64,000 nt of DNA from an uncultured Bacteroidales bacterium (GCA_902798425.1 CADBWR010000005.1:12579-76578), one strand, 5' to 3'; positions 49,998 to 64,000 are shown, counted from the first letter of the stretch. Numbers and translations are program-made. The notes: generated by a model not told the origin, from the letters alone.

Positions 49998-50104
49998 AGC
50001 TCCATTCGTCCAATAGCTTGCGAGCAGCGTAGAGCGTTAGTCCAATGGCTAAAAGGAGTATGAAAGTGGGGTAGTTGTTGTTAGGGACTCCCTACGGCTA
50101 CCCA

Positions 50105-50348
50105 GAAACACAAAACACCCTGTAGATAAGCATCTACAGGGTGTTGGTGGTAGTCGATAGGGGACTTACCGCTAAGGAAACCCACCAAAACGGCTTAAAC
50201 AAGCCCCTTCCGTAAATACCTATATTTCAATTATTTAATAAACTATTTAAAAATCTTAATAAACTGGCTAAAATTTGCATATTTCGAAAAATGCGTGTAA
50301 TTTTGCGTGTAAATTCGAAGGCCTTTTGCCAGCTAATCATCTCAATGA
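50105..50348 (-). ncRNA. candidate about 245-nt antisense/outward transcript at the integrase end of the element
   Basis: Minus-strand TTTG-N20-TAccTTTG promoter (-7 box 50355-50362, -33 at 50383-50386). 12-bp perfect hairpin 50116-50143 followed on the minus strand by UUUUGUGUUU. Antisense to the integrase 5' leader. Confidence 0.35.
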
Positions 50349-50399
50349 CCGCTGCAAAGGTACGATTTTTCATCATATTAAGCAAATTTTTGAGCAAAA

Positions 50400-51752
50400 A
50401 TGTCTGTAAGATTTTTCCTCGATAAGACTCGAATAAAGAAACACGGTGACGGTGCTGTCAATGTCAGGTGTGCTATTTGCATTAAAGGCAAGCGCCTTAC
50501 TACTACAGCCGGTTTCTCTATCCTTCCAGAACTCTGGGATCAGGAAAACCAGAAAGTTAGGTTATCAACACCCAATGGTAAGTCCGTTGTAATTGACGGC
50601 CTGACAGCGAGAGATCTTAATAGCCGTCTTAAGAAGATAGACAGCTATTTTTCCGATTATGAAGCTGAACTCAAACGAAAAAACGAACCGGTCGGAGATC
50701 TCAAAGAATTGTTTGGGAAGGAATTCGGCAAGAAATCGCCAGATATCCCCGCAGAGGAAGAAACGGAAGCGCCGGACATACGTGATTATCTGAAGGCGTT
50801 TCTGGAGGAACAAAGCGATAAAAACAAGTGGCGCACCCTGACAGTAAGGAGTATGGACTCTTTCAAAAGTCATATGGAAGACTTTTTCAACCATGACAAA
50901 ATAACCTCAATCGACTATTTTGACGAGGACGGTACCACCCGGTTTGTCAATTTCCTCATCGATGATAAATGCTTACGCAATTCCACTATCGAAAAGTACA
51001 CCAGCAGACTGCGCTACTTTATCAGATGGGCAGGCAAGAAAGGCTATACAAGCCTAAAAGCCGATTATAAGCCACGCCTCCAGAAAACTAAGAAGCCAAT
51101 TGTCTTCCTGGACTGGAACGATCTCATGAAGCTCCTGAATTACGAGTTTCCTGAAATAGGAACTGAGATTGAACTGGAGGATGTCCACGGAAACCAGTAC
51201 AAAAAGAAAGTCAGTATTGAGAAGGACACTGCAGAACGAATACGCGATGCGTTCTGTTTCTGTTGCTTTACCTCGTTACGGTATTCAGACCTTAAACGGT
51301 TGCAGCGAACAAACATCTTCGGTAAGTACATTCTACTAACGACGAAAAAAGATACCGACTCGGTAAAAATCGAATTAAACAAGTATTCAAAGGCCCTCCT
51401 CGATAAATATCGTGACGAATCTTTTCCAGACAATGCCCCACTCCCTGTTATCAGTGAGCAGCGCATGAACGAACATTTGAAGCTTATTGGTGAAATGTGC
51501 GGCTTCAACGATCCTGTTCACATCACTTACTTCAGGGGAAGCGAACGAGTTGACGAAGTCTATGAAAAATGGAAGCTGATGACCACGCATGTTGGCAGAA
51601 AGACTTTTATCTGTAATTCACTTATGCTTGGTATCGCGCCGCAGATTGTCATGAAGTGGACAGGACATAGCGATTATGCTGCCATGAAGCCCTATATTGA
51701 GATTGCAGATAAGGCAAAAGAGGATGCTATGTCCTTGTTTGACGCAAAATAA
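50400..51752 (+). CDS. int: tyrosine-type site-specific integrase
   Basis: C-terminal catalytic region (FTSLRYSDL, HVGRKTF, WTGHSDYAAMKPYIE) and N-terminal arm-binding-type domain. TAaaTTTG and TAatTTTG boxes upstream. Confidence 0.9.
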   Translation: MSVRFFLDKTRIKKHGDGAVNVRCAICIKGKRLTTTAGFSILPELWDQENQKVRLSTPNGKSVVIDGLTARDLNSRLKKIDSYFSDYEAELKRKNEPVGDLKELFGKEFGKKSPDIPAEEETEAPDIRDYLKAFLEEQSDKNKWRTLTVRSMDSFKSHMEDFFNHDKITSIDYFDEDGTTRFVNFLIDDKCLRNSTIEKYTSRLRYFIRWAGKKGYTSLKADYKPRLQKTKKPIVFLDWNDLMKLLNYEFPEIGTEIELEDVHGNQYKKKVSIEKDTAERIRDAFCFCCFTSLRYSDLKRLQRTNIFGKYILLTTKKDTDSVKIELNKYSKALLDKYRDESFPDNAPLPVISEQRMNEHLKLIGEMCGFNDPVHITYFRGSERVDEVYEKWKLMTTHVGRKTFICNSLMLGIAPQIVMKWTGHSDYAAMKPYIEIADKAKEDAMSLFDAK

Positions 51753-51954
51753 AGCCCTCTGACGGCTTTTTGTTACTTCTGACGTGTAGTTGCCCGCCAA
51801 GTATACAAAAACGCCACAGAAGGCCTAAAATGTGCAAAATTATAAACATTTTTGCTATTTGCATGACTGAATAGTTCAAAGACATAAAATACTGAATGCC
51901 TTGAACTTATTATTTTTATGTTTTCAAACAAAGTAACACTTTTTGTCAAAATAT

Positions 51955-52370
51955 TGTAAACATGTATACATGTAAACATTGTTAGCAAAAAGAAATTTAA
52001 TGAGCAAAAACCTCCTTAAATAGGCATTTTTTTATGTGTACATTTTAAACATGTGGACATGTCAACACGATTAAAACGCCAACACTACTGCAAGAGGATT
52101 ATTAAAACCAGGTACAAAATATCAGGCATAATTAATGATCGTCTATCGGTTCTCCTGTAAAGTTTCACTGATACACGGGACTGATGCCCAATATTTTGAC
52201 CAGCTTAACCTGGATATTTGAATAATTTAAAAATGTACGCACGTACACATGTGTACATATTTATAAAGTATACACGTATTCATGTATGACATGCGGACAT
52301 GAAATATTGTATAAAAGAATACATGTTTACAATGTAATCATGAATACAATGTCTAACTGTCTTCATGAAT
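51955..52370. repeat. array of ACATGT-centred palindromes/half-sites
   Basis: Six exact ACATGT (51960, 51968, 52049, 52057, 52247, 52321) plus five further CATG. Perfect 14-bp palindromes ACATGTATACATGT (51960-51973) and GTACACATGTGTAC (52243-52256). Confidence 0.8.
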
Positions 52371-52513
52371 ACAACTTTTATCTTACCTTCATCAGTTTTA
52401 CTTTTATAGAAATCCACCAAATAACCGTTATATGGTAGGTTTTCGGTTTTACGTATGCCTTTCAGCAGACTTGTGTTCACTTTCTCTATCTGACTGTGAG
52501 AGGGTTCTACCAT
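52280..52513 (-). CDS. hypothetical small protein
   Basis: 77-aa ORF. Its 3' third is encoded by the ACATGT repeat array, so the real extent is uncertain. Confidence 0.4.
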   Translation of the reverse strand: MVEPSHSQIEKVNTSLLKGIRKTENLPYNGYLVDFYKSKTDEGKIKVVFMKTVRHCIHDYIVNMYSFIQYFMSACHT

Positions 52514-52686
52514 CCTGAATAGTCGAGCTGACTCCTCTCACCCTGTGTTATCTGTAACCTATTCTGGACGCAGTCCTTCTCTCCACCGGCATTACCGTTG
52601 ATAGAGCATATTTCTTTACCATTCGTCGTTTGACACTTTATATCGTTTTCCACCCCACTTCGTTTCAAAAACTTTTCCTTTTCCAT
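52507..52686 (-). CDS. hypothetical 59-aa protein (below ORF-track cutoff)
   Basis: Hand translation gives MEKEKFLKRSGVENDIKCQTTNGKEICSINGNAGGEKDCVQNRLQITQGERSQLDYSGW. Its TAG overlaps the ATG of 52280..52513 (ATGGTAG). Confidence 0.3.
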   Translation of the reverse strand: MEKEKFLKRSGVENDIKCQTTNGKEICSINGNAGGEKDCVQNRLQITQGERSQLDYSGW

Positions 52687-53063
52687 GTTTCACCAACAGT
52701 CTATCTTTTGGGATGACAGCCTAAAGTATGACACGTGTTCTGGCGTTGCTCTCAAAGCTGTCTGCATACGGCCTGTCCATCTTATCAAGATTGGTATTCA
52801 CTTTTATTTTTCTGGGTGAGCGTGACTTATTTTTCCGTTGCGAATTTAGCACCAGCGCCATTTGGCAAGTACCAGTCGTAAACCTCCTTATCCCTGCAGA
52901 AAATTCTCAGCAGCCTTCCGCATTTTCTTCTTAACGGACAAGTCCTAAAGGAAATGGGGTATTCCGTGAATTTTCCTTAGTATTCCTTGACCGTTGCATG
53001 TCTTCTTCTGGTTTGCTTTGTTTTGCACGTAAAAATTAAGTTTCACTCTAAAAAATAAAAATT

Positions 53064-53387
53064 ATGAATACCTTCAATGATTTTCAGATTACAGCTCGTC
53101 TCACTGCAGATGCTAAGATTACCAAGTTCCAGAACACTTCAGTTGCTCGCTTCGGCGTAGCTGTCACCCGTACGGAGAATGTAAACGGTGAGGAAAAGAA
53201 GGTCGTAGGTTTTATGAATCTCGAGGCATGGCGTAAAAATGAAAAAGTTTCAGACTTCGATAGTTTGAAGAAAGGTCAATATCTTTTCATCCATGGAGTG
53301 TTTAAACCAGTGGAATACGAAAAGGACGGTGTCAAGCACCATGTGATAATCCTTACGGCCAGCAGCTGGGAAGCCCCCTTTGACTAA
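53064..53387 (+). CDS. ssb: single-stranded DNA-binding protein-like (OB fold)
   Basis: ARLTADAKI...ARFGVAV...FMNLEAWRK...LKKGQYLFIHG pattern of SSB OB folds. Short protein ending in PFD. Confidence 0.7.
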   Translation: MNTFNDFQITARLTADAKITKFQNTSVARFGVAVTRTENVNGEEKKVVGFMNLEAWRKNEKVSDFDSLKKGQYLFIHGVFKPVEYEKDGVKHHVIILTASSWEAPFD

Positions 53388-53395
53388 TACAATCC

Positions 53396-53420
53396 GGAGG
53401 GTAAGCGAACCCTCCTTTTT
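53396..53420 (+). terminator. intrinsic terminator after ssb
   Basis: GGAGGG-taagcgaa-CCCTCC followed by TTTTT. Confidence 0.7.
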
Positions 53421-53439
53421 AACTCATAAGATGCAAACA

Positions 53440-54640
53440 TAAAATACTTTGCATGAAAGGGGCCAGATGTGAATCTCGCCCTTTTTTTCCATGTTTCTGA
53501 ATTTGTCAGGTTTTTGTCAGAAACAGCCGTTTTCTGGGTATACTCTCGAAAAACGACCTCACAGGAAGCCCCAGGAGGGCATAATGGACAGTCGGTGAGG
53601 TAATTATACCTCCTAAAATCGGGCGAAACGAAAAATATTGACACCCGATTTTCGTATCATATCTGCTTACCTCTGTATCATTTTTGATACATAAATCCAT
53701 CAGCCGTGCATACTCACTCTCGGTACTGCCCCATTGACGGACTCGGCCCACTCCTGGCAGCATGCTAAAGCACTATCCCTGTTCACTCCTGGCAGCTCAT
53801 GGAGCTTTGGTCGCCAACATGGATGGTACGTCAGCAGCTTTGGTCGCCGTCCGTTGTCTGTCAGTGTGGCCGCTGGGTCGCCAGTACTTCTTTCTGATGT
53901 GAATCTACACTTCCGCTTGCATCCGACACCGCTATTGGCTCTTAATCTGCCTGAAAGTTCATGAATATCTCTCTTCGGGGGTTCCGGCTCGACGGACACC
54001 ATTCTGCTCTGCAACCGTAGAGTAACGTCACGTCCTGATAGCGGACGGCGGTCTGCTCTGTTAAGGGAGAATGTGCCTGGTACAGTCACACACACCCTGA
54101 ACAGTGGTTCATACATCTTCATTCCTCGATGTCTGCACCACCGCAAAACGCTGTCTGCTGGCCGTAACATCACACTCCTTATTGCTGGGCTGAATGGCTA
54201 TTCCTGTTTGTCACCCTACCTTGCGAGATGTCCACGGACTTTCCTGTCAGGATCCACTGGTGACAGCCGGATGCAGCTTACTGAAGAAAACCGTCAATGC
54301 TTGACGGAACCCCAAACGGGATGAGAAGTCTTTTCTGATTTATCTTCGTCCTTTCCAGTATGCTATTTTCACCTCATGGGGTTAGCTGAGTTTTCGATGG
54401 AGTCTTTTTCCTTGCAAAGGTAGGACAACCCGGGGAAACACCAATAAACAAGCCGATGGTTCTGGGACAAATTTTCCGGCAGCCTTCCACAGATTGTGCC
54501 AATCTGGGTATTCCATAAAATTTCTCGCAGAATTTCTTGGCTTATCCCCCTTGAAAGTTGATCCTGATAACCTGGCAAGAAAAAGGACTCAAAACTCAAC
54601 TAAGTCGATGACGACTGAAAATTGAAAGCACACCGGCAGA
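53440..54640. other. about 1.2 kb ORF-free, GC-rich, repeat- and hairpin-rich segment (candidate large structured RNA or ssDNA regulatory element)
   Basis: Only short overlapping Arg-rich ORFs on both strands. Hand-counted 60-nt lines reach 63% GC against about 42% in the relaxase gene. Exact 13-nt direct repeats CACTCCTGGCAGC (x2) and AGCTTTGGTCGCC (x2). Many 6-9 bp hairpins. Confidence 0.4.
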
Positions 54641-54686
54641 CTTGATAAGAAAAAACTTCAAAAGAAGAAAGGATCTAAAATCTAAC

Positions 54687-54971
54687 ATGCCGATAACTTC
54701 AACAACAGCGTCAGAAACAATACTAACTATAACCGATGCCGACGGAATACAAACAGGCAGCAAAGATATGAAACAGACAGTTGAAAGATTGCAGAAGATT
54801 GAGAACCAAATGGAGACAATCGGCGAGAACATCCGCAAGGAAGGCCAAGTGTACCGTGCCGAACTGGAGGAACGCCAACGTCTGGGCCTCCATGGGGAAG
54901 CAGCCATCAAGCACTACAATGAATGGATGAAGAAATACGGTATGGGGCACTTAATGGTTAAGGAGGACTGA
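54687..54971 (+). CDS. hypothetical coiled-coil protein
   Basis: First gene of a tightly packed plus-strand operon. Helical, charged sequence. Confidence 0.55.
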   Translation: MPITSTTASETILTITDADGIQTGSKDMKQTVERLQKIENQMETIGENIRKEGQVYRAELEERQRLGLHGEAAIKHYNEWMKKYGMGHLMVKED

Positions 54972-54973
54972 TT

Positions 54974-55198
54974 ATGACACCGGAAGAGTATATTGAAAAG
55001 CTGAAGGAGGTGCAGCGCACCCTTGACAGTGTAAAGGAAGATCTTGACCGTGCCATCGACAGGATGCAGCGACGTATCGAGACGGGTTATGAACATCTGG
55101 AGAAAGATAGCCGTCTGGCAGCTCTGGCGGGACGTGAATACGTGAAGATGGCTGACAGTACACTTCTGGAAGTAGGAACAGCTAAAATAGAATACTGA
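54974..55198 (+). CDS. hypothetical coiled-coil protein
   Basis: Starts 2 nt after the previous stop. Helical, charged sequence. Confidence 0.55.
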   Translation: MTPEEYIEKLKEVQRTLDSVKEDLDRAIDRMQRRIETGYEHLEKDSRLAALAGREYVKMADSTLLEVGTAKIEY

Positions 55199-55199
55199 T

Positions 55200-55322
55200 A
55201 TGGGACATTTAACAGATTTTGAACTGATACTCGTTGGAGTGTGTATCACTCTTTTCTGCTTCGGCTTCAATGCCTTTATCAAGAATGTATATCTGAAGGG
55301 CTTTAATTCTTCTAAGTTATGA
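55200..55322 (+). CDS. 40-aa single-TM micro-protein (below ORF-track cutoff)
   Basis: Hand translation gives MGHLTDFELILVGVCITLFCFGFNAFIKNVYLKGFNSSKL. ATG lies 1 nt after the previous stop, and its TGA overlaps the next ATG (ATGA). Confidence 0.4.
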   Translation: MGHLTDFELILVGVCITLFCFGFNAFIKNVYLKGFNSSKL

Positions 55323-55597
55323 TTACTGCTTATGGACAGGAAAGGGCTGTCGGGGAAGTCTGGATAGACACCATCGACGGAGCCAAGGTTATCACCGTTG
55401 CCGATGATGGGTGCAAGGACTGTGCTTTTGCCACTCATGCCGGTGGTGCCTGCCCAGGAACTATATACGACCGCCATCCCTGCAGTGCTACAGACCGCAA
55501 AGATGGACAGGACGTATATTTCAAATTGATACATTATGTTCCGGAGGCTAAAGCACCGGTACTGAGGATGACACCATTTGGCATCTTACATCTTTAA
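55319..55597 (+). CDS. hypothetical Cys-rich small protein
   Basis: 92-aa ORF with five Cys, coupled to neighbours. Confidence 0.5.
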   Translation: MITAYGQERAVGEVWIDTIDGAKVITVADDGCKDCAFATHAGGACPGTIYDRHPCSATDRKDGQDVYFKLIHYVPEAKAPVLRMTPFGILHL

Positions 55598-55608
55598 TGC
55601 TTTAAACT

Positions 55609-55707
55609 ATGAACAGGACGGTGAATATAGTGTTGCTGTGGACTACAAGCCTTGCGCTTGTGGCAGATCTTTTGTTCGTGGCCTATCTGATGATGGGTAT
55701 GATGTAA
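55609..55707 (+). CDS. 32-aa single-TM micro-protein (below ORF-track cutoff)
   Basis: Hand translation gives MNRTVNIVLLWTTSLALVADLLFVAYLMMGMM. Fills the gap before the HNH gene. Confidence 0.3.
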   Translation: MNRTVNIVLLWTTSLALVADLLFVAYLMMGMM

Positions 55708-55719
55708 TTACGGACCGAT

Positions 55720-56019
55720 ATGGCAAAGAAACACTCTATCCTTAACAAGACAGCAGGACACTGCGCCTATTGCGGATGCACCCTCAATGTGCAGAATATG
55801 ACCCGAGACCATGTTGTGGCCAAGTCACGGGGCGGTACCAGTGATATCGACAACCTTATGCCTGCCTGCAGATCATGTAATCTCCTAAAAGGGGATGACA
55901 CCTTGGACTCTTTCCGGCTTCGGTTCTTCTGGGACACCCTGCACCCGTCAGACCTTGTCACATACGACTCCATGGTAAAGGCCATTTCTAAGAAGAAATT
56001 CTACTTTGAGGGTCGTTAG
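55720..56019 (+). CDS. small HNH endonuclease
   Basis: CAYCG...DHVVAKSRGG...NLMPACRSCNLLKG (CxxC...H-N-N/H...CxxC). Confidence 0.85.
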   Translation: MAKKHSILNKTAGHCAYCGCTLNVQNMTRDHVVAKSRGGTSDIDNLMPACRSCNLLKGDDTLDSFRLRFFWDTLHPSDLVTYDSMVKAISKKKFYFEGR

Positions 56020-56054
56020 GTTGACCGCCGTCCGCTATGTCGCGCGCAGCTTCC

Positions 56055-57254
56055 CTACGGTCGCTGCCTCCTGATCACTCCAGCCTTATACTTGCTATCG
56101 ATGGTCGGATTCTCAAATGTGCCTGGTGCGTAGTACTGACAGTCACATGATACATACTTCCTGCCTATCTGACTGGTGTGCTCTGCCATCTGATGGCCAC
56201 ACGAAGGACATTCATGCTTCACTCTGATTAAATAGAGCTGGTCTGATTCGTTCAATGGCTCACCTCTTATGATCTTGTTCTGGATGGCGACGTATGTCAT
56301 TCCTGATGACTGCATCGTCATACCTTCCCTCGCTGGTTCCGGTGATGACTCTTCCTGTCCAACCGTTACCTCTCCCTGTGGCTGAACTGTCGGAACAGTT
56401 GTTTCTTCCGTCATGGTGGTCTCACCTTCTTTGGAACTCTCACCAGTTTTCTCTTCCTTGGCGGTCTTCACCTTTGGTTTTGCGTCAGACTTGCGCTTTC
56501 TTGATGCTGGTGCCGTCTGTAGTTTCGCAGTATATTTTTTCCAGACAGCTTCGTAATCGTATGTCTCTGGATTTTTCTCTTTGTCTTTTAAAAAATCCTG
56601 CAGAACCTTAATGTCGTTCAGTATTCTCTCCTTCATGCCTTCGTCAACATGAAAATTGGGAATTTGATAAATGAACTCGATAGCCTTTAGAAATTCTTCT
56701 TGTTCTATTTCTTTAGTACCGTTTCCACTTATCCTAATGTTATATTGGCTGTTGTCGATGAGTGGTCGAACATCGCTCCAGTCGCTCAAACCAAACTTTG
56801 TAATCGCTGTTGCAATTTCTTCTGGTATCATATGATCTTCTCCCTGAAGGTCAAGATGCCACATCAGGTGAATACGAGTACATTGTATGCGTGACTTCCG
56901 ACGCTTCAAGATTCTGTTGACGGCATCAATGAGATAAACAGGCTTTGAGTCGGCGGCATTGTTAACAGGTAAGCTCTCCAGATGTTTTTTCCACCGTTCG
57001 CGAAACTGCTCCATGTGTCTTTTATCGACAGGTCGAACAGGAACAGATTTTGGAATGGTAAATCTGTTAATCAACTTTATCAGTTGCTCTATCCTATTAT
57101 CTGGAGCAAGACTTTCTTCGACAGAAATTGCACCCTTCTCTATGAATTTTTCATAGGCACGACTGACAGTCAGCCCACATAACTTTTTCAGATTGTTGAT
57201 AGTGTAGTCTCTTACCTTCTTGTTGCAAGGTATCTTTATTCTTTTTTCTTCCAT
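56055..57254 (-). CDS. hypothetical protein with C-terminal zinc-ribbon, divergent from the mob operon
   Basis: Start at MEEKRIKIP. Low-complexity K/E/T linker. CPSCGHQM...CDCQYY resembles topoisomerase-type C4 ribbons. Function unknown. Confidence 0.65.
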   Translation of the reverse strand: MEEKRIKIPCNKKVRDYTINNLKKLCGLTVSRAYEKFIEKGAISVEESLAPDNRIEQLIKLINRFTIPKSVPVRPVDKRHMEQFRERWKKHLESLPVNNAADSKPVYLIDAVNRILKRRKSRIQCTRIHLMWHLDLQGEDHMIPEEIATAITKFGLSDWSDVRPLIDNSQYNIRISGNGTKEIEQEEFLKAIEFIYQIPNFHVDEGMKERILNDIKVLQDFLKDKEKNPETYDYEAVWKKYTAKLQTAPASRKRKSDAKPKVKTAKEEKTGESSKEGETTMTEETTVPTVQPQGEVTVGQEESSPEPAREGMTMQSSGMTYVAIQNKIIRGEPLNESDQLYLIRVKHECPSCGHQMAEHTSQIGRKYVSCDCQYYAPGTFENPTIDSKYKAGVIRRQRP

Positions 57255-57325
57255 AGTTATACGCTTTTGTTTTTTTTCAACAAAGGTACACATATATATA
57301 TTTATCGCTGAAAAAACAACATAAA

Positions 57326-57590
57326 ATCTCTTGAATTAACCATTTTAAGACTTGGCTTGTCGTAAAATAGTTAATTCAAGAGATAGAAGCTCTATTTTTT
57401 CGAAAAAAAAGAGAGACAAAGTACCTTTGCTGTAACTCAAATGAGTTAGGCGAGTAGTGGCACCATTCCGGAATGTCACACTGACGTGCGAAATTCCGAT
57501 GGTTCCCGACTCGCCCCAGAAGGGGATAGCGCACCCTCTGTATCGGGTGCTTTCTTCATTAACGTTATACGAATTTCTAATATTTAAGAA
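57326..57590 (+). promoter_or_regulatory. candidate oriT / mob promoter and structured leader
   Basis: Perfect 15-bp inverted repeat ATCTCTTGAATTAAC / GTTAATTCAAGAGAT (57326-57340, 57370-57384). TAccTTTG at 57422-57429. 12-bp palindrome CATTCCGGAATG (57464-57475). GCACCC/GGGTGC hairpin plus TTTCTT at 57531-57556. Lies directly upstream of the relaxase operon. Confidence 0.45.
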
Positions 57591-57592
57591 CT

Positions 57593-58309
57593 ATGAACGA
57601 AGGAAATATTATCAATTCTGCGCTTGCTTCTTTGCGCGAAAAGAAGACAGATAGACGCGAAAGAAGAGTAGAGTTCTTGACCCCATCATCCTCCATGAAG
57701 GAGGAAATGATAGCGCGAGCAAACAATGGTTTTGGAAGGCCTGGTTATAGTCTTTCGCGCATGTTACGATACATCTATCTACACATGGATGACGGGTGTG
57801 GTATCGACCTCGACTGCGTTGACGAACTAATAAAAACCATCAAAGATAATCGCTCACAACTCGATAGAATAGACATCTTCTTCGAGGAAATTCTTCGAGA
57901 AACGAACCGTATCGGAAACAACATCAACCAAGTCACTAAACGGGTAAATCTTGAGTCGTTGATTGCCAAGGAAGAGGGTACACCTGAATATGAACTTGGG
58001 AAAAAGTTGCTGGATATGATTAAATATATCCAGTACTATCAGGACGAGTTGCTGGAGAAAATTAGGTCGTTTACTGCTTCAATGACTCTAAATAGAGAGA
58101 CTTTGAAGAACGTGTTAGGTGGTGAAGACGAACTACTGACACGTTGTCTCGTGTTTCCAAATGCTGGCGAAAAAGAACAACAGTATAAAGTCCTTATCAG
58201 AAAGATAAAGGATTATATTGGTGGGAACAAGGAACAATATCATAATATGACTATTGGCCAGCTATTGGCAGAATTGAATGAGAAAATTGAAAGTAAAACA
58301 AAGCAATAA
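57593..58309 (+). CDS. MobC-like relaxosome accessory protein
   Basis: NRIGNNINQVTKRVN matches the MobC-family GxNxNQxA/T+ motif. Precedes the relaxase. Confidence 0.7.
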   Translation: MNEGNIINSALASLREKKTDRRERRVEFLTPSSSMKEEMIARANNGFGRPGYSLSRMLRYIYLHMDDGCGIDLDCVDELIKTIKDNRSQLDRIDIFFEEILRETNRIGNNINQVTKRVNLESLIAKEEGTPEYELGKKLLDMIKYIQYYQDELLEKIRSFTASMTLNRETLKNVLGGEDELLTRCLVFPNAGEKEQQYKVLIRKIKDYIGGNKEQYHNMTIGQLLAELNEKIESKTKQ

Positions 58310-58320
58310 ATATATATAAT

Positions 58321-60897
58321 ATGGAACGTGGAATAGTTAAAATGCTCGGTAACGATGCCACTACGTTTGCGGCATGTTTCTACAACGAAAAGAAGGTGGC
58401 AAAGGGCGAAGCCAAACTCCTTGAAATGCGAAATTTCGGTGACTTGCAGAAGTATGGCATACATACTCCTGTAGTTACAAGTCGTTACCTGAGAAAGATT
58501 GCCGACCAGAATCCGGACGTGAAACATCCTCAGAAACATATTATGTTTTCACTTCCTGGCAAGCCCACGGAAGAGGAAAAACAGCAGCTTGTAGATCATG
58601 CAGTAAAGGTCTTAGATATGCTTGGGTATAAGAACCAGCCTATTCTTGTCTATTCGCACAATGATACTGGCTATTGGCATTTGCATTGCGTCACTGTAAC
58701 AGTGAATCAGACTACTGGTGAATGGATAGACAACTATAAGGAAGGGAGAAAAGCCAGACATTATCTTGATGAACTTCGAGGTGTCAATGCACCTAAGACC
58801 ATCGAAAACTATCTGGACTATAAGTTTTCATCCAAGGAGCAGTTTCTCAGCTTGCTTCGTGCCAATGGCTATCCCAAGTCTTTCTTTGACGACGAACTGG
58901 AAGTCGTTAATGTCGTCCGAAATGGGGACGTTCAACATATCTTCACGTTTCAGGAAATTAGTGAGGCCATCGAAAGGAACAAGAAATATCTGGAAGAGTC
59001 CAAGGATAGGATAAAACAACTTCATAGCATGATTCTTGACAGACGTCAGCGTTCAATGAAGTATCTCGTAGAAGATCCTGACGTGAAGATAACCAAGGAT
59101 GGAAAACGTCATACCGTAACCGAGAGATTACGTGACGTTCGTGGAGCTGCATTCGAGGGTGACAAGGGATTTGGGGAGGAGTATAAGAACCTCACTGGAC
59201 AGGAGGTTAAGGGTATTCGCAAGGCTCAGTTTAAGCAGTTCCTTGAAGAACTGAAAGAACAATTGGGAATATCCATTATCTTTAACCAGTGGAAAGATGG
59301 CAGCACAAGAGGATATACACTAATTGACCATCAAACAAAGTCAGTCTTTAAAGGCTCAGACATCTTACAGCTTGACAAACTGCTGAATCCTGACTGGAAG
59401 AAGGGAACGGAAAAGGACTTAGTTCTATCTGCCGATGAAGCAAACGAAGCCACTCATAAACTGGTCAATTCTCCAACCTTGGCTGAGGATATATACGATG
59501 GTCTGGCTAATATGGGAATAGAAGTTGAAAGGCTGTCGGACTCTGAAATCGAGGATATAGCGATTGAATATCAGGAGGAAGAGGAAAATCGGCGAATGGC
59601 CGTCTCTCTCTTGACAGAGCTGAGGAAGGAGTATACACCAGAAATTTCTGAATATGGGGAAGAATATAAACAGTTATGCGAAAAAGGACAGGATGCCTAT
59701 AATCATGCTTTAGTGGCAGAATATCTACATCAATTGGAACAGAACAACGAACAGGACGAAGATGAAATGAAACTGCGTGACAGAAAAGATTTTGATAGCC
59801 TGAATATAGGTGAATATATAGAGGATGTACTGGAGAGATACAAAATATACGATATAGCTGGCCACTATGAGCTGTCGAAAGAAAACGTTGATGAAAAGAC
59901 TGCTGTTGACAGAGCATATGCAAGCCTACAACTGTCTTTGCAGGCAAATGAAAAAGGTGAAATAGCTGAAGCCCGACAGAAAGCAGAAGAAGCAGTAGCA
60001 TACGCCCGACATGCATATGATTTACATGAGAATCCGAAGCTATTGCAGAGAGAGGATGAGTTGGATGATGGGAGTAAAATGCAATCCAACGAACAGTATG
60101 ATTTCTTTCTGCCATTTGTTGATGTTAAGCCGCATATATATCAATATAAGGGCGAAGCATATATATCAGCAATGATTGACGGCGAACAATATGATGGCCG
60201 GAAGATGAGCAAAGAACATTTCTATCACTATAACTATAGTGAAGAGCAACAAAATGTAGGGATGGCACTTGCCTGGCACTACTTCTCGGATGAAATACAG
60301 GAAAGACAACTCTATAACTGGAAACAAGAGCATTTTAAGGTGGGCAAGATGCCAGAGGGCGTAGAACTTGAATCTGCTAAAGATTACTATGACAACACTT
60401 CTCAATCTTTTTATTGTGCAGCAAATTTTGTTTTCTCCAATGGTGACAAACTGTACAGAAATAGACCCTATACTAAGGAAGAATATCACGAATTAAAGAA
60501 GAATAACTATACGCCAGAACAAATGGCATGTAGAAAATATGGTCCAGAAATTGTCGGGGATTTGGAAGTAACTGATTCTCTGAGTATCAACAGTATCAAA
60601 GGAAGGCTATTTGGAGAGATGGCAGACCCAAATTCATTTAAGGGAATAGAGGAAACGGTGGCAGCTTTCAATGACTTTGCTGGACAATTGTGTGGGAGTT
60701 TTAGCAGGGTATGCGGAGCATTCGCAGATGCATATTTTGAAAGCATCGGTGCTGCAGCTGGTGCTGGACATGGTGGAGGTGGACAGGACACTGGCAGATG
60801 GGATGGTAAGAACAATGATGACGAGAAGAGAAAGCCATTCATCCTTGGACATATTCCCACAAGGAAGTCTGGACGCGGAGGACATGTAGGACATTAA
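58321..60897 (+). CDS. relaxase/mobilization nuclease with long C-terminal extension
   Basis: N-terminal relaxase fold with HNDTGYWHLHCVTVTVN (HxDx3-4HxH...N metal motif) and an N-terminal Tyr region (FYNEKK). Gly-rich basic C-terminus. Confidence 0.85.
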   Translation: MERGIVKMLGNDATTFAACFYNEKKVAKGEAKLLEMRNFGDLQKYGIHTPVVTSRYLRKIADQNPDVKHPQKHIMFSLPGKPTEEEKQQLVDHAVKVLDMLGYKNQPILVYSHNDTGYWHLHCVTVTVNQTTGEWIDNYKEGRKARHYLDELRGVNAPKTIENYLDYKFSSKEQFLSLLRANGYPKSFFDDELEVVNVVRNGDVQHIFTFQEISEAIERNKKYLEESKDRIKQLHSMILDRRQRSMKYLVEDPDVKITKDGKRHTVTERLRDVRGAAFEGDKGFGEEYKNLTGQEVKGIRKAQFKQFLEELKEQLGISIIFNQWKDGSTRGYTLIDHQTKSVFKGSDILQLDKLLNPDWKKGTEKDLVLSADEANEATHKLVNSPTLAEDIYDGLANMGIEVERLSDSEIEDIAIEYQEEEENRRMAVSLLTELRKEYTPEISEYGEEYKQLCEKGQDAYNHALVAEYLHQLEQNNEQDEDEMKLRDRKDFDSLNIGEYIEDVLERYKIYDIAGHYELSKENVDEKTAVDRAYASLQLSLQANEKGEIAEARQKAEEAVAYARHAYDLHENPKLLQREDELDDGSKMQSNEQYDFFLPFVDVKPHIYQYKGEAYISAMIDGEQYDGRKMSKEHFYHYNYSEEQQNVGMALAWHYFSDEIQERQLYNWKQEHFKVGKMPEGVELESAKDYYDNTSQSFYCAANFVFSNGDKLYRNRPYTKEEYHELKKNNYTPEQMACRKYGPEIVGDLEVTDSLSINSIKGRLFGEMADPNSFKGIEETVAAFNDFAGQLCGSFSRVCGAFADAYFESIGAAAGAGHGGGGQDTGRWDGKNNDDEKRKPFILGHIPTRKSGRGGHVGH

Positions 60898-61032
60898 CAA
60901 TAGTTCATACTTGTCTGCCAGTGGTTGGAGAGTGTTAAGAAGTCATAAACAGACAATCCTTCTTGTTTTTAGCATCAAAAAACACGCCAAAAATTTGGTG
61001 GTTTCAGAATTTTTTTCGTACCTTTGCAAATG

Positions 61033-61263
61033 ATATAAGACTGTCAGCACTCCCTAAGAGGTAAAAGGTAAAGGACTACGTAATGTGAAGCCTCGGACGG
61101 TAAAAGGCTGACACCAGCTGGAGAGAGCACTGCTCCTGGCCCGTCATATCAGGGAAACCTCCAAAAGACATACGGACATGTAGCAAGGATTGGAAACTGG
61201 CTACGCTTTCCAAAGGTAAAGTCCGCAGAATATCCATTGATGTGGGTATCCTGCGGGCTTTTT
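61033..61263 (+). ncRNA. candidate about 230-nt structured RNA with its own promoter and terminator
   Basis: TTTG (60994-60997)-N21-TAccTTTG (61019-61026). Several internal stems (TGTCAGC/GCTGACA, AGCCT/AGGCT, TTGGAAA/TTTCCAA). Terminator GTCCGCAG...CTGCGGGC plus TTTTT at 61221-61263. Contains no ORF above the 60-aa cutoff in the transcribed (+) sense; the 66-aa ORF at 61076..61276 is antisense. Confidence 0.45.
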
Positions 61264-61409
61264 GTATGTCTCCCATTCAACTGTGATGCGTCGCGGCTCA
61301 CTGAGAAGATAATAAGAAGATAACTGCCATTCCGGCTCCGAGGTTCCGCGACACCTCGCCCGGGGTGGCATTATTGAAGTTGCACACGACACGAAGTAGT
61401 GTATTAGTA

Positions 61410-61739
61410 ATGATGACTTACAAAGAGACTAAAGAAATGGGGTGTACAGATATTGTGTATTGGAAATCTGAACCTCAGACAAACCCTAAGACAGGCAACG
61501 AGTTCTTCACTCCAGAGGATGCCAAGAGCCTCTTCGTTAAGCTTAAAGAAGAACATGCTAAAGAGATAGAAGAGGAACTTAATGATATCATCTTTAAACA
61601 CAATATTAGTGAGGATGAAGATGAGTTCGATGCAGAGTATTACTGGAAGATAGATAACTATATCTGGGAAGATGCTGCAAATCTCGATGACCTAATACAG
61701 GAAGAAGAAAACCACCCTGATTGGGTGTGTCATTCTTAA
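61410..61739 (+). CDS. highly acidic hypothetical protein
   Basis: 109 aa from MMTYKETKE. By hand count about 30 D/E against 10 K and no R. Confidence 0.55.
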   Translation: MMTYKETKEMGCTDIVYWKSEPQTNPKTGNEFFTPEDAKSLFVKLKEEHAKEIEEELNDIIFKHNISEDEDEFDAEYYWKIDNYIWEDAANLDDLIQEEENHPDWVCHS

Positions 61740-61744
61740 CAATA

Positions 61745-62240
61745 AGGCGCTCTTTGAAAGACTGAACGATATTGGGGAATGCGGCACTCGAGCCATGGGA
61801 GAAGCGGGAGGCGGTCACGGCGGCCTCGGTAGGACCGGCCCATGAGCGTAGCGGTTCCCCATCTTCTGGTACTCTTAATACCTGCGCCTTTGAGCGTGTC
61901 GGCATTAGCCATCCTGTTGTTAAGTACCAGATTTCGCCTGGCATGACAGTGTGGGAAGCCTTGGGCATAAGAAGGTACAGGTGCGTCCCCCTTTGCAGTA
62001 AAGCCCATGAGCGACACTGTGCCAGGCCCCCAAACAGGACGGACGCAATAGTCCTGAAGCTGCACACTGCCGGACGGAGCAGTTCCGAGCATCCCGGTTC
62101 TTCCGTTGAAGACAACTCAGACAGGAGTGCAGCATTTTGGGAGGAGTTGCGGGAACGGGTTTCATCGACGCGTTCACTTAGACCAGCCTCCCATTTGCCG
62201 AGCGGCTGGTTATCGATGGTGGCAGCTCTTTCAAGAGATT
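61745..62240. other. about 0.5 kb ORF-free, very GC-rich segment (candidate structured RNA)
   Basis: Line 61801-61860 is 44/60 G+C. Only overlapping nonsense ORFs on both strands. Ends can pair (GCTCTTTGAAAG at 61749 with CTTTCAAGAG at 62228). GCCCATGAGCG occurs twice. Confidence 0.4.
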
Positions 62241-62273
62241 CTTTATTTATTAACTTTTTAAATACAAACAATT

Positions 62274-62783
62274 ATGAAAAAGAACATTTTAGCGAAATTG
62301 ATGATGGTGGCCATGGTAGCCACAATGTGCATGACATTCACAGCCTGTGGCGGTGACAGTGATGATGACGACCTTAATAACGGTATGTCCGGCAGCACCA
62401 CGACATGGGTGGAGCCATACCTCCGTTGGGATGCTACCCTCGACCAGATCAAGGCCGACATGGCCACTCAGGGCTGGACGGCACAGGTTAGCGAAGGGAA
62501 CATCCTGCAGTTTGGCAACAACAGCAGATATCCTGGTGTCACGATGACGATGGGCGTGCTGAATAGCAGAACCAATACGCTGAGCACGACACAGGTGGCC
62601 TATATGAATGTCCCATCAGACTTTTTTAACAAGATCCTGAGTGAGGTGGTGACCCGCTATAATGCGACTTGGGAGAGTACTGGTCGGATATACTCTGGCA
62701 AGGGTGTCGCCAACGATAAGGATGTGTCGATTACCGTCACCAATGCCGCCAGTACCGTCCTCGTACAGTTCGTGAGACGCTAA
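62274..62783 (+). CDS. hypothetical lipoprotein
   Basis: MKKNILAKLMMVAMVATMCMTFTACGG lipobox followed by an acidic linker. Confidence 0.65.
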   Translation: MKKNILAKLMMVAMVATMCMTFTACGGDSDDDDLNNGMSGSTTTWVEPYLRWDATLDQIKADMATQGWTAQVSEGNILQFGNNSRYPGVTMTMGVLNSRTNTLSTTQVAYMNVPSDFFNKILSEVVTRYNATWESTGRIYSGKGVANDKDVSITVTNAASTVLVQFVRR

Positions 62784-62799
62784 CCGCCGTCCATTAGTT

Positions 62800-63186
62800 A
62801 TGAAAGCAACATTTGACGTAACAATCAAGATCGACAACAGAAATGTCGAGACATCCTTCGGAATGAAGGAGGGCGCACAGGATGTAGATGCCAATCTGAC
62901 GGGACTGGTACTGAAAATCATCACCAATGCCCAGAAGGAGTTGAAGGAGCAGTTTGACCGCTACTATGGTGTAACTACCGATGCGCCTTCACAGGAGTTG
63001 CTGCAGCAGCTCTACGATGGAAAGCTGACGCATCTGGAGTACGTCCAGAGGTCAGTAGAGTACCAGGAACCCTTCCGGCAGTTCTGCTTGGATCATCAGC
63101 TGCAGGAAAGCGACCGTGCTGCCCAGCAGTTCTTGGACAGCCTGCTGAAGGAAGAGGAGTCCGCTCATACTGACGGGCTGGATTGA
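62800..63186 (+). CDS. hypothetical protein
   Basis: 128-aa ORF, same strand as and close to its neighbours. Confidence 0.5.
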   Translation: MKATFDVTIKIDNRNVETSFGMKEGAQDVDANLTGLVLKIITNAQKELKEQFDRYYGVTTDAPSQELLQQLYDGKLTHLEYVQRSVEYQEPFRQFCLDHQLQESDRAAQQFLDSLLKEEESAHTDGLD

Positions 63187-63207
63187 CGAAATATCAATTT
63201 AATTAGA

Positions 63208-63444
63208 ATGATTATGGCAAAAGAATTAGATCAGCAGGAATTGGCAAAACAGGACACAGTCCTACTGCCTGGAGTATCTGAATATCGAAAAAATATTCAG
63301 GAGTGCATCAATAACCTTGGCGAAGTGCTCAATGAATTTGTGGTTAAGGAATCACTCAATAACCCAAATACGCTTGAATGGATGTCAAGGTATGTCGCTG
63401 AAACCAGAATGTTTCTTTCGACTCTTAAAAGTGACCTGAGCTAA
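63208..63444 (+). CDS. hypothetical small protein
   Basis: 78-aa helical ORF, followed by a terminator. Confidence 0.5.
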   Translation: MIMAKELDQQELAKQDTVLLPGVSEYRKNIQECINNLGEVLNEFVVKESLNNPNTLEWMSRYVAETRMFLSTLKSDLS

Positions 63445-63483
63445 GGCAATAATAACCAGGCACTACAAGATGCATATAATTAC

Positions 63484-63518
63484 GAGCTGCTACCCATCAC
63501 GGATAGCAGCTCTTTCTT
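63484..63518 (+). terminator. intrinsic terminator
   Basis: GAGCTGCTA-cccatcacgga-TAGCAGCTC followed by TTTCTT. Confidence 0.65.
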
Positions 63519-63602
63519 CGCCAAATCAATATCCACCAGTCACAGCAGAACTGGTGCAAAGATACTCATTTTTACCGATGCCGTCCAACTATGTTACTAC
63601 TC

Positions 63603-64000
63603 TTAGTTGTATTTCCTGTTAGTGCCTAACATGTCGTGAATATCGTATATGTGTTGTTCCTGAAGGAAAGTGTTTCCTCCACGTTCAACAGCTGCTTTCA
63701 GCAGGTTTGCCACCTCCCATCGGTCTGTAAATTGTGCCGATGGATGGCCTTCTATAATGTCATAAACAGCCTTTATCGACCAATAGAATGTCGACAGATA
63801 ACAGTCATGAGGAATGAAATTCACATCCTTCAGCTCACAATCCCCTGCGAACACCACAAGTGAATACATGGGCAGTGTTGCCATCTGCGGTGACAGTCTG
63901 CGAAGAGCCTTAATGTGGCCCTCGTTCTGCTTGAATGGGTTATAAAATCGGTTCCGATATTTTCCATATCCAGACACCTGTGTCCAGTAGTCTTGATTTC
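63603..64000 (-). CDS. NERD-domain-like protein, C-terminal part (gene continues past the right edge)
   Basis: The frame stays open upstream of the listed start (NQDYWTQVSGYGKYRNRFYNPFKQNEGHIKALRRL). The NPxxQxxxHxxxL pattern is typical of NERD nuclease-related domains. Confidence 0.6.
   Translation of the reverse strand, partial: NQDYWTQVSGYGKYRNRFYNPFKQNEGHIKALRRLSPQMATLPMYSLVVFAGDCELKDVNFIPHDCYLSTFYWSIKAVYDIIEGHPSAQFTDRWEVANLLKAAVERGGNTFLQEQHIYDIHDMLGTNRKYN

Follow-up and report, generated by a model that had tools for sequence, protein, structure and literature searches.

The window analysed here is a 64,000-nucleotide (nt) stretch of DNA from an uncultured Bacteroidales bacterium (GCA_902798425.1 CADBWR010000005.1:12579-76578), Bacteroidales-like in its content and occupied from ~50.4 kb onward by an integrated conjugative element (ICE). 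Between an acidic-protein gene and a lipoprotein gene of this ICE lies a GC-rich segment (61745-62240), which a preliminary description, made from the sequence alone, had read as non-coding and probably as a structured RNA. Tests of coding potential, covariation and RNA-derived contigs support that reading, and we conclude that the 0.5-kb segment is very probably the body of a plus-strand structured non-coding RNA, representing a new modular family and carried by the ICE of a rumen Prevotella-type bacterium.

A GC-rich segment with a predicted chain of hairpins

The segment contains 281 G+C in 496 nt (56.7%) vs 43.2% in the rest of 50001-64000, a real excess over chance. Its richest 60-nt stretch, at 61782, holds 45/60 G+C, and the count of 44/60 previously given for 61801-61860 was reproduced. 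On the plus strand, a chain of six predicted hairpins (H-A, H-X, H-M, P1, core and H-B) runs between a 5' boundary motif and a 3' tail, with H-A and H-M being two copies of what we refer to as the A-type domain. The features of the segment and the two flanking ICE genes discussed below are as follows (R1 and R2 are covariance models; MFE, minimum free energy).

58321-60897: relaxase gene of the ICE, 858 amino acids, Bacteroides MobB type, just before the RNA region
61749-61771, plus strand: 5' boundary motif GCTCTTTGAAAGACTGAACGATA, beginning 10 nt past the stop codon of the upstream open reading frame (ORF)
61773-61861, plus strand: H-A, first A-type domain, outer stem TGGGGAA/TTCCCCA, MFE -37.4 kcal/mol; R2 score 125.1 bits, E = 8e-31
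61868-61928, plus strand: H-X hairpin, closed by GGTACTCTTAA/TTAAGTACC, computed fold
61936-62027, plus strand: H-M, second A-type domain, outer stem GCCTGGCA/TGCCAGGC, MFE -36.0 kcal/mol; R2 score 42.8 bits, E = 1.4e-8 (61909-62035)
62035-62056, plus strand: P1 hairpin, CAGGAC-loop-GTCCTG
62059-62133, plus strand: core, 75 nt, R1 score 171 bits
62059-62065 / 62127-62133, plus strand: closing helix of the core, GCTGCAC/GTGCAGC
around 62067-62073 / 62117-62124, plus strand: second helix of the core
62074-62106, plus strand: variable arm of the core, with a 7-nt loop AGCATCC (NGCAUCC across the alignment)
62107-62116, plus strand: invariant strand TGAAGACAAC, predicted to be unpaired and running on into CAGAC
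62138-62193, plus strand: H-B hairpin, TGGGAGG ... CCTCCCA, apex related to the A-type domains
62194-62258, plus strand: 3' tail, with a deletion junction at 62213|62214, a terminator remnant GGTGGCAGCTC at 62218-62228 and a T-rich tract
62274-62783: lipoprotein gene, 3' of the segment, followed by small ORFs and a NERD-domain gene

In A-type domains, an outer stem encloses a 5' strand GAGCC(A/U)UGGG and a 3' strand GCCCAUGAGCG, both of them conserved, on either side of a variable apex. The repeated motif GCCCATGAGCG noted in the preliminary description is present at 61838-61848 and 62003-62013; it is no isolated repeat but forms the conserved 3' strand of this hairpin domain, of which there are two copies here and 53 in the collected loci. 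The proposed pairing of the termini, GCTCTTTGAAAG (61749) with CTTTCAAGAG (62228), is likewise possible and is used in the MFE fold, although it amounts to only 7 bp plus 3 bp across a bulge. As a closing helix it was rejected because it is not conserved: in locus L015 the 5' motif is retained and the 3' end differs. The folding energy of the single sequence was not significant (z = -1.26 for the plus and -1.94 for the minus strand), hence the evidence for structure comes from the comparison of loci instead.

Relatives in rumen Bacteroidales

Homologous loci are labelled L and sequencing runs X. The exact lipoprotein sequence was found on 23 contigs, which match the DNA of the window at 100% identity apart from an additional 69 bases at 62213. 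More distant relatives emerged from the minus-strand ORF, for which 25 protein "homologs" were retrieved; most match residues 40-79 only, at 80-100% identity and at varying positions in unrelated ORFs, and this patchy pattern pointed to a conserved DNA block at 62035-62154 of the window. P1 and core are 97-100% identical in ~30 otherwise diverged loci from rumen Prevotella/Bacteroidales; in fetched contigs with diverged or unrelated flanks, 62035-62134 shows 97-98% identity. The exact core pattern occurs in 7 species-level genomes, all of them metagenome-assembled genomes of rumen Prevotella, Prevotellaceae or Bacteroidales, and in 22 metagenome loci, with 0 viral contigs in IMG/VR. A blastn search of 61700-62300 gave no match among PLSDB plasmids or INPHARED phages.

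Wherever a relaxase gene is within reach (the window, L003 and L007), the RNA region lies 3' of it on the same strand, and the core is found behind two relaxase families, the MobB-like PF03432 and the Mob_Pre family PF01076. Upstream synteny in 11-15 loci comprises a truncated DUF1896 gene and a small protein resembling a lipoprotein. In L003, L007, L015, L024 and 7 others, the DUF1896 gene stands immediately 5' of the RNA region and covers profile positions 5-67 of 142, such that the RNA cassettes may have replaced the remainder of the gene and what came after it. No partner protein consistently encoded beside the RNA was found in the compared loci. Part of the 5' boundary is also shared, as the motif (T/G)ATCTTTGAAA(C/A)(A/T)CTGAGATA follows the upstream gene in L015, L010, L036, L014, L007 and L006 (alignment A3). 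It does not match the Bacteroidetes promoter consensus and may instead represent a processing or boundary site.

Compensatory changes and strand specificity

The preliminary description had named covariation among collected homologs as a check, and covariation proved strong in an unbiased MAFFT alignment of 26 distinct sequences (A2). The structure derived from it with RNAalifold is a 75-nt imperfect hairpin, in which a closing helix and a second helix lead to a variable arm and 10 nt on the 3' side stay unpaired. Overall, 97.3% of cells were paired vs 88.8% in shuffles, 9 pairs with 63 cells had changed on both sides vs 16 cells expected, and the covariation score was reached by 0/500 shuffles. 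When the 3' partners were slid by 1-3 columns as a control, pairing fell to 28-49%. In the arm of the core, 8 of the 10 pairs have changed on both sides and 98.1% of cells are paired (variants ACGGA/UCCGU, CUGGA/UCCAG, GUGGA/UCCAC, GUAGCACC/GGUGUUAC and GUGAUAAC/GUUGUCAC).

The closing helices are invariant in A2, partly because the search pattern had fixed them. In a diverged second core copy of L006, recovered with the covariance model (42 bits), they become CCUCA/UGAGG and UCG/CGA, and CUGAAGACAAGCCAGAC is kept letter for letter. Helices outside the core are similarly rewritten. The P1 stem is swapped for CAGGGA/TCCCTG in L009, L013, L016 and L021, and for another hairpin in the diverged L006 copy. 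The outer stem of H-A covaries (CCUGGC/GCCAGG vs UGGGGA/UCCCCA), with 8 of 17 predicted pairs changed on both sides in A3, as does H-B, in which 4 of 14 pairs have changed on both sides (GGGAGG/CCUCCC vs GACAGG/CCUGUC vs CCUUGGG/CCCAUG; alignment A4).

Several lines of evidence assign this structure to the plus strand. Pairs 61:83 and 55:99 of A2 are G-U in 18 and 12 sequences, respectively, where the minus strand would give A-C mismatches, so that the frequent G-U pairs fit the plus strand only. R2 identified 53 A-type copies in 32 sources, at 1-4 per locus and 2 in the window, 53/53 of which lie on the strand of the core. Across the whole 64-kb window, R1 and R2 match inside 61745-62207 only, and on the plus strand only. 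The segment thus displays two general hallmarks of a structured non-coding RNA, namely compensatory pairs beyond those of controls and strand specificity.

Coding potential

The segment had been described as ORF-free, which holds in that it contains no credible gene, and does not hold literally: ORFs at 61606..62271 (minus strand, 221 amino acids) and 61772..62356 (plus strand, 194 amino acids) exist, as the same description listed. Within the segment, a single stop interrupts plus frame 0 and none occurs in minus frame 2, and two frames are open for 164 and 158 codons; compared with dinucleotide shuffles, the longest has P = 0.02 and the second was reached in 0/2000. Attributing these ORFs to the classic signature of GC-rich DNA is therefore an incomplete explanation, as the frames exceed shuffle lengths.

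That the long ORFs (147 or 194 amino acids on the plus strand, 221 on the minus strand, or a further one of 34) constitute a protein-coding gene or a type I toxin-antitoxin system is nonetheless a reading we consider almost certainly wrong. It would account for the two overlong frames and for the minus-strand ORFs often called in homologous loci, and a 34-amino-acid hydrophobic ORF (61841-61945, peptide MSVAVPHLLVLLIPAPLSVSALAILLLSTRFRLA) does start at an ATG inside GCCCATGAGCG. Yet no sign of coding selection was found in the overlong frames of ~28 homologous loci, and homologs checked for a coding frame revealed none. Substitutions against six collinear homologs are distributed 159:147:160 over codon positions in either long frame, i.e. 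without codon periodicity, indels against these homologs measure 1, 2, 5 and 7 nt, and the P1-core spacing in A2 varies by 1- and 2-nt indels. A search of 5.8 billion proteins found no homolog of the plus ORF, matches to the minus ORF extend over only 33-40 amino acids at varying positions, and both long ORFs are broken once the 69 bp are restored. Pfam and NCBIfam searches with these nonsense ORFs and with the small neighbouring proteins returned nothing. The 34-amino-acid ORF was also rejected as a type I toxin because it is not conserved: other copies stop after 9-14 codons, the small RNA (sRNA) related to H-X (see below) has no ATG, and its L027 version has a stop in the hydrophobic-ORF frame. 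For annotation, this means that gene finders call spurious proteins over the RNA in dozens of rumen assemblies.

Modules, promoters and terminators

The modules of this RNA behave as cassettes, the order and copy number of which vary between ICEs, with 1-4 A-type domains 5' of the core. In L003, L006, L012, L015 and L024, they are bracketed by Bacteroidetes promoters (TTTG ... TAnnTTTG) and by hairpin-plus-U-tract terminators. The smallest such unit (L012 and the second L006 copy) consists of promoter, P1, core and terminator in ~185-190 nt, L003 carries three consecutive ORF-less units, and L024 a unit of ~480 nt. An intrinsic terminator hairpin occupies the position of H-B in other loci. In L003, L007, L008 and L027, H-X corresponds at 85-87% identity to the body of a separate ~85-nt sRNA gene equipped with both promoter and terminator, and H-M has collinear homologs in L006, L020, L029 and L033. 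Units of P1 and core also occur in tandem, 434 nt apart and with differing 5' contexts, in L016 (2412-3031), L018 (7467-8086) and L025 (1049-1669). "Tiny units" made of a promoter, CUCCAUUCUUCU and a terminator, without P1 and core, are present on the reverse strand of L015 (~215-380) and in L024 (13804-14011), and look like deletion derivatives between AGCUGC direct repeats.

The window copy differs from these units in that, as originally noted, it has no promoter or terminator of its own. Using -33 TTTG / -7 TAnnTTTG as the promoter criterion, 61263-62260 contains no -7 box, and no promoter belonging to this copy is recognisable. The terminator is missing because a 69-bp deletion at 62213|62214 removed the 5' half of its hairpin. 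This deletion is confined to the window, the bases being present in all remaining contigs and runs, whether DNA or RNA (L001, L002, L015 and runs X1, X6, X9 and X39), and could be either genuine variation or a mistake in the assembly from which the window was taken. With the 69 bases, a ~60-nt hairpin GAGCTGCTGC...GGTGGCAGCTC forms, and the whole 141-nt stretch folds at -44.9 kcal/mol vs -9.6 kcal/mol without them; in L015 this terminator hairpin is followed by T6. With its own promoter absent and its terminator hairpin halved, the window copy was rejected as an independent Bacteroidetes sRNA gene.

This setting raises the question of whether the segment is instead a cis-acting intercistronic or 3'-untranslated-region element, the hairpins of which stabilise or insulate the neighbouring mRNA in the manner of REP/BIME sequences, with no function in trans. 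The absence of an own promoter between two co-oriented genes would fit, as would the start of the RNA right after a stop codon in many loci and the mosaic-like shuffling of modules; REP/BIME elements are likewise GC-rich, palindromic, intergenic, variable in order and transcribed with neighbouring genes. We consider this unlikely in view of the ORF-less promoter-terminator units of L003, L006, L012 and L024. A generic stabiliser would also not need P1 and core to be 97-100% identical despite differing neighbours and relaxase families, and the unpaired strand stays invariant as helices change. Moreover, REP sequences are dispersed in both orientations, whereas A-type matches are found here only and on one strand in 64 kb. 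A REP/BIME assignment as such was rejected, with model matches confined to 61745-62207 on the plus strand and the modules restricted to one ICE region, often equipped with their own promoters and terminators, and built around a unique ultra-conserved core.

RNA-derived contigs in rumen metatranscriptomes

Core words were detected in 14 rumen metatranscriptome runs. In 4 of the 14, contigs of 250-580 nt cover 62035-62213 and extend into the 69-bp terminator sequence, while depth in the same 4 runs is zero over the genes for the relaxase, the acidic protein and the lipoprotein. The homologous parts of L015 and L024 are likewise covered by RNA contigs, with neighbouring genes at zero depth, and on L024 contig ends fall at 13801-13804, where the U-tract of the terminator stops. 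RNA contigs also include a tiny unit without the core, in X26, with a joint skipping 105 nt. DNA runs, by comparison, yield long contigs that evenly cover the RNA region and its flanks. Accumulation of an RNA, which the preliminary description had proposed to look for, is suggested by these contigs, which are strandless. The RNA is apparently very abundant, as one of the positive runs holds just 12 million letters.

These data also bear on the possibility that the hairpins act at the DNA level, in the single-stranded form of the ICE, as sso/ssi- or Frpo-like elements. The sso of ICEBs1 lies 3' of its relaxase gene, and a strand-specific, GC-rich hairpin region co-oriented with and 3' of the relaxase gene would suit such a role, G-T wobbles being tolerated in DNA. 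It is made very improbable by units that are delimited by double-strand promoters and intrinsic terminators and by RNA-run contigs ending at the U-tract. Furthermore, one core is found behind two relaxase families (PF03432 and PF01076), and the CS-6-like TAGCG in GCGTAGCGG is not conserved among copies.

Comparison with known RNA families

The RNA matches no described family and appears to be new. The cmscan search suggested in the preliminary description gave 0 hits at gathering score across the whole window for the 4227 models of Rfam 15, which include ROOL, GOLLD, HEARO, OLE, raiA, 6S, tmRNA, riboswitches, ribozymes and CRISPR repeats. The same gathering search of 10 homologous loci returned nothing but an unrelated tRNA, and lowering the threshold to E <= 10 on the region gave only chance snoRNA/lncRNA fragments, with no ribozyme or riboswitch among them. 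Full-text searches of the literature on rumen Prevotella, Bacteroides non-coding RNAs and conjugative elements found no description of the RNA. A tRNA-like reading was considered because ACCA comes after the 7-bp closing stem of the core in roughly half of the variants; it was rejected, as the window has AUUU at this position, no cloverleaf forms, and an ARAGORN tRNA/tmRNA search was negative.

The conserved unpaired nucleotides framed by covarying helices, together with a terminator directly 3' of the core in L003-type copies, could also suggest an orphan riboswitch aptamer or a ribozyme in the core, with the conserved internal loop serving as binding or active site. Ligand sensing or self-cleavage by this RNA is nevertheless highly unlikely: there is no conserved downstream gene and no match to a known model even at E <= 10, and the antiterminator of the L003 type (GCAGC with the terminator GCUGC) is absent from the other 3' hairpin types. 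A riboswitch was rejected because downstream genes differ between loci and many units precede another promoter rather than an ORF.

Among large mobile-element RNAs, ROOL and GOLLD are "ornate" RNAs of phages and prophages with families of their own in Rfam, ROOL having first been seen in rumen metagenomes. The RNA described here resembles them as an apparently highly expressed, ~0.5-kb, GC-rich, multi-hairpin non-coding RNA of a mobile element amid AT-rich DNA. It differs in having no sequence or structure match to them, in residing on ICEs (0 matches in IMG/VR and INPHARED), and in its architecture, which is not fixed but a mosaic of cassettes also found as separate small genes.

Closer to Bacteroidota, GibS and FopS represent Bacteroides sRNA families that are multicopy and share a conserved motif in single-stranded form; FopS is chromosomal or phage-borne and acts on mRNAs of polysaccharide utilization loci (SusC-like) (PMC11697453). 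RteR, an sRNA of CTnDOT (cited in PMC7366714), shows that conjugative transposons of Bacteroides can employ an sRNA acting in trans. The units described here share with GibS/FopS and RteR the features of Bacteroidota sRNA genes with sigma-ABfr-type promoters and intrinsic terminators, and with GibS/FopS also the several paralogous copies per genome or element and a conserved unpaired stretch as the likely contact surface. The RNA is, however, much longer and more structured.

A third group for comparison is CsrB/RsmZ, abundant RNAs, as the present one appears to be, that carry repeated motif-bearing hairpin units, although the units here are ~90 nt rather than ~20 nt with GGA loops, and Bacteroidota are not known to have CsrA. 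The RNA might accordingly sequester proteins or serve as a scaffold, with A-type domains and core providing multivalency as in CsrB/RsmZ, or self-assemble like ROOL and GOLLD. The 1-4 domain copies per locus with conserved internal loops (GAGCC(A/U)UGGG ... GCCCAUGAGCG), the apparent abundance in metatranscriptomes and the failure to find an RNA target in the window would fit such a molecule. We still regard it as rather doubtful, given that no partner-protein gene is consistently adjacent and that the number and order of A-type domains vary. Stand-alone core units (L012 and the second L006 copy) have none at all, which indicates that the A-type domains are dispensable for the core.

Possible origin and function of the RNA

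Because the window copy has no promoter of its own, its RNA probably stems from upstream transcription that passes through the acidic-protein gene, with a 5' end probably set at the conserved CUUUGAAA.ACUGA motif. As the 5' half of the terminator is lost in this copy, transcription probably then runs on into the lipoprotein gene. We favour, though with more doubt than confidence, the view that the RNA acts in trans, with the core strand C-UGAAGACAA-NN-CAGAC as the contact surface for a partner, which could be either an RNA recognised by base pairing or a protein. The strand is viewed as a functional surface because it is identical even where all surrounding helices have been rewritten. The repeated A-type domains with their conserved internal loops may add stability or further binding sites.

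More broadly, and tentatively, we propose that rumen Prevotella ICEs carry an "RNA accessory genome", consisting of arrays of promoter-terminator sRNA cassettes that recombine into larger ornate RNAs, with the ~75-nt domain at their centre and its invariant strand of 17-20 nt as a binding or catalytic element. That cassettes are exchanged among ICEs whose relaxases differ suggests that the RNA itself is under selection, and ICEs may trade sRNA genes much as phages trade morons. If true, such RNAs would form a new class of effector encoded by conjugative elements and directed at the host or at competing elements. Very few structured RNAs from Bacteroidota conjugative elements are known, and those of mobile elements in general (ROOL, GOLLD, HEARO/omega RNAs and bridge RNAs) have time and again proved to be new molecular machines. 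P1 and core together (~100 nt, or 185-190 nt with the terminator) are small enough for direct biochemistry.

Several points weigh against the reading of the segment as a structured non-coding RNA or against its action in trans. The compared sequences are related and mosaic, so that independent events are fewer than the compensatory cells counted. The search pattern dictated the 3' half of the core, hence its invariance among L008-L036 partly reflects ascertainment, and the pattern-independent support for this half consists only of the protein-word search and the model match in L006. The RNA contigs are assembled, strandless and derived from variants rather than from the exact window copy, and may include some DNA. 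Lacking a promoter and with a broken terminator, the window copy might be decaying or merely co-transcribed. ORFs longer than in dinucleotide shuffles, chiefly on the minus strand, recur at P <= 0.05 in ~12/28 loci, which share modules and are therefore not independent of one another. Finally, the search for a target of the invariant strand within 43-64 kb of the window gave a best duplex of -18.4 kcal/mol, weaker than the best of 30/30 shuffled seeds, and a pattern search of the whole 64-kb window found nothing above chance.

Neighbouring modules and other features of the element

Beyond the segment, the following features were recorded in the ICE part of the window.

50400-51752: tyrosine integrase gene
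53064-53387: SSB gene
57593-58309: MobC gene
60985-61262, plus strand: neighbouring putative sRNA gene, directly 3' of the relaxase gene, ORF-free transcript of ~220 nt
61283-61360, plus strand: H0, upstream hairpin module, inverted repeat I8, computed fold

The putative sRNA gene has the promoter nearest to the segment, a cassette GGTTTCAGAATTTTTTTCGTACCTTTGCA with its -7 box TACCTTTG at 61019, and a strong terminator (hairpin 61223-61256 followed by T5 at 61259). It has 72% identity to sequences just 3' of the relaxase gene in L003-L005, and an X31 RNA contig covers 61059-61227. The promoter cassette GGTTTCAGAATTTTTTTCGTACCTTTGCA recurs before several units elsewhere.

Between H0 and the segment, an acidic ORF of 109 amino acids (61410-61739) lies within 61374-61747, an interval absent from variants X8, X6 and L006. 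In the X8 and X6 contigs and in L006, 61373 is joined to 61748 with ATTT between, and H0 then adjoins the segment; the acidic-protein gene thus looks like optional cargo between RNA modules. Family searches with this ORF gave no match except a sub-threshold one to TfoX_N (E = 0.008). Its strong acidity would fit a DNA mimic or anti-restriction factor. On the other side of the segment, contig L001, which is identical to the window, shows transfer genes beyond the NERD-domain gene.

A second long non-coding stretch, at 51760-53060 between the integrase and SSB genes, comprises ~1.3 kb of very AT-rich, ORF-poor sequence with many ACATGT/TGTACA-type repeats; neither a second core nor an A-type domain was found when sought within it (51.8-53.0 kb). 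Just 3' of the SSB gene, a non-coding block of ~100 nt (53548-53648, CGAAAAACGACCTCACAGGAAGCCCCAGGAGGGCATAATGG...) is unrelated to the core and has 71-85% identity with sequences near the RNA region in L003, L010, L016, L024 and L032.

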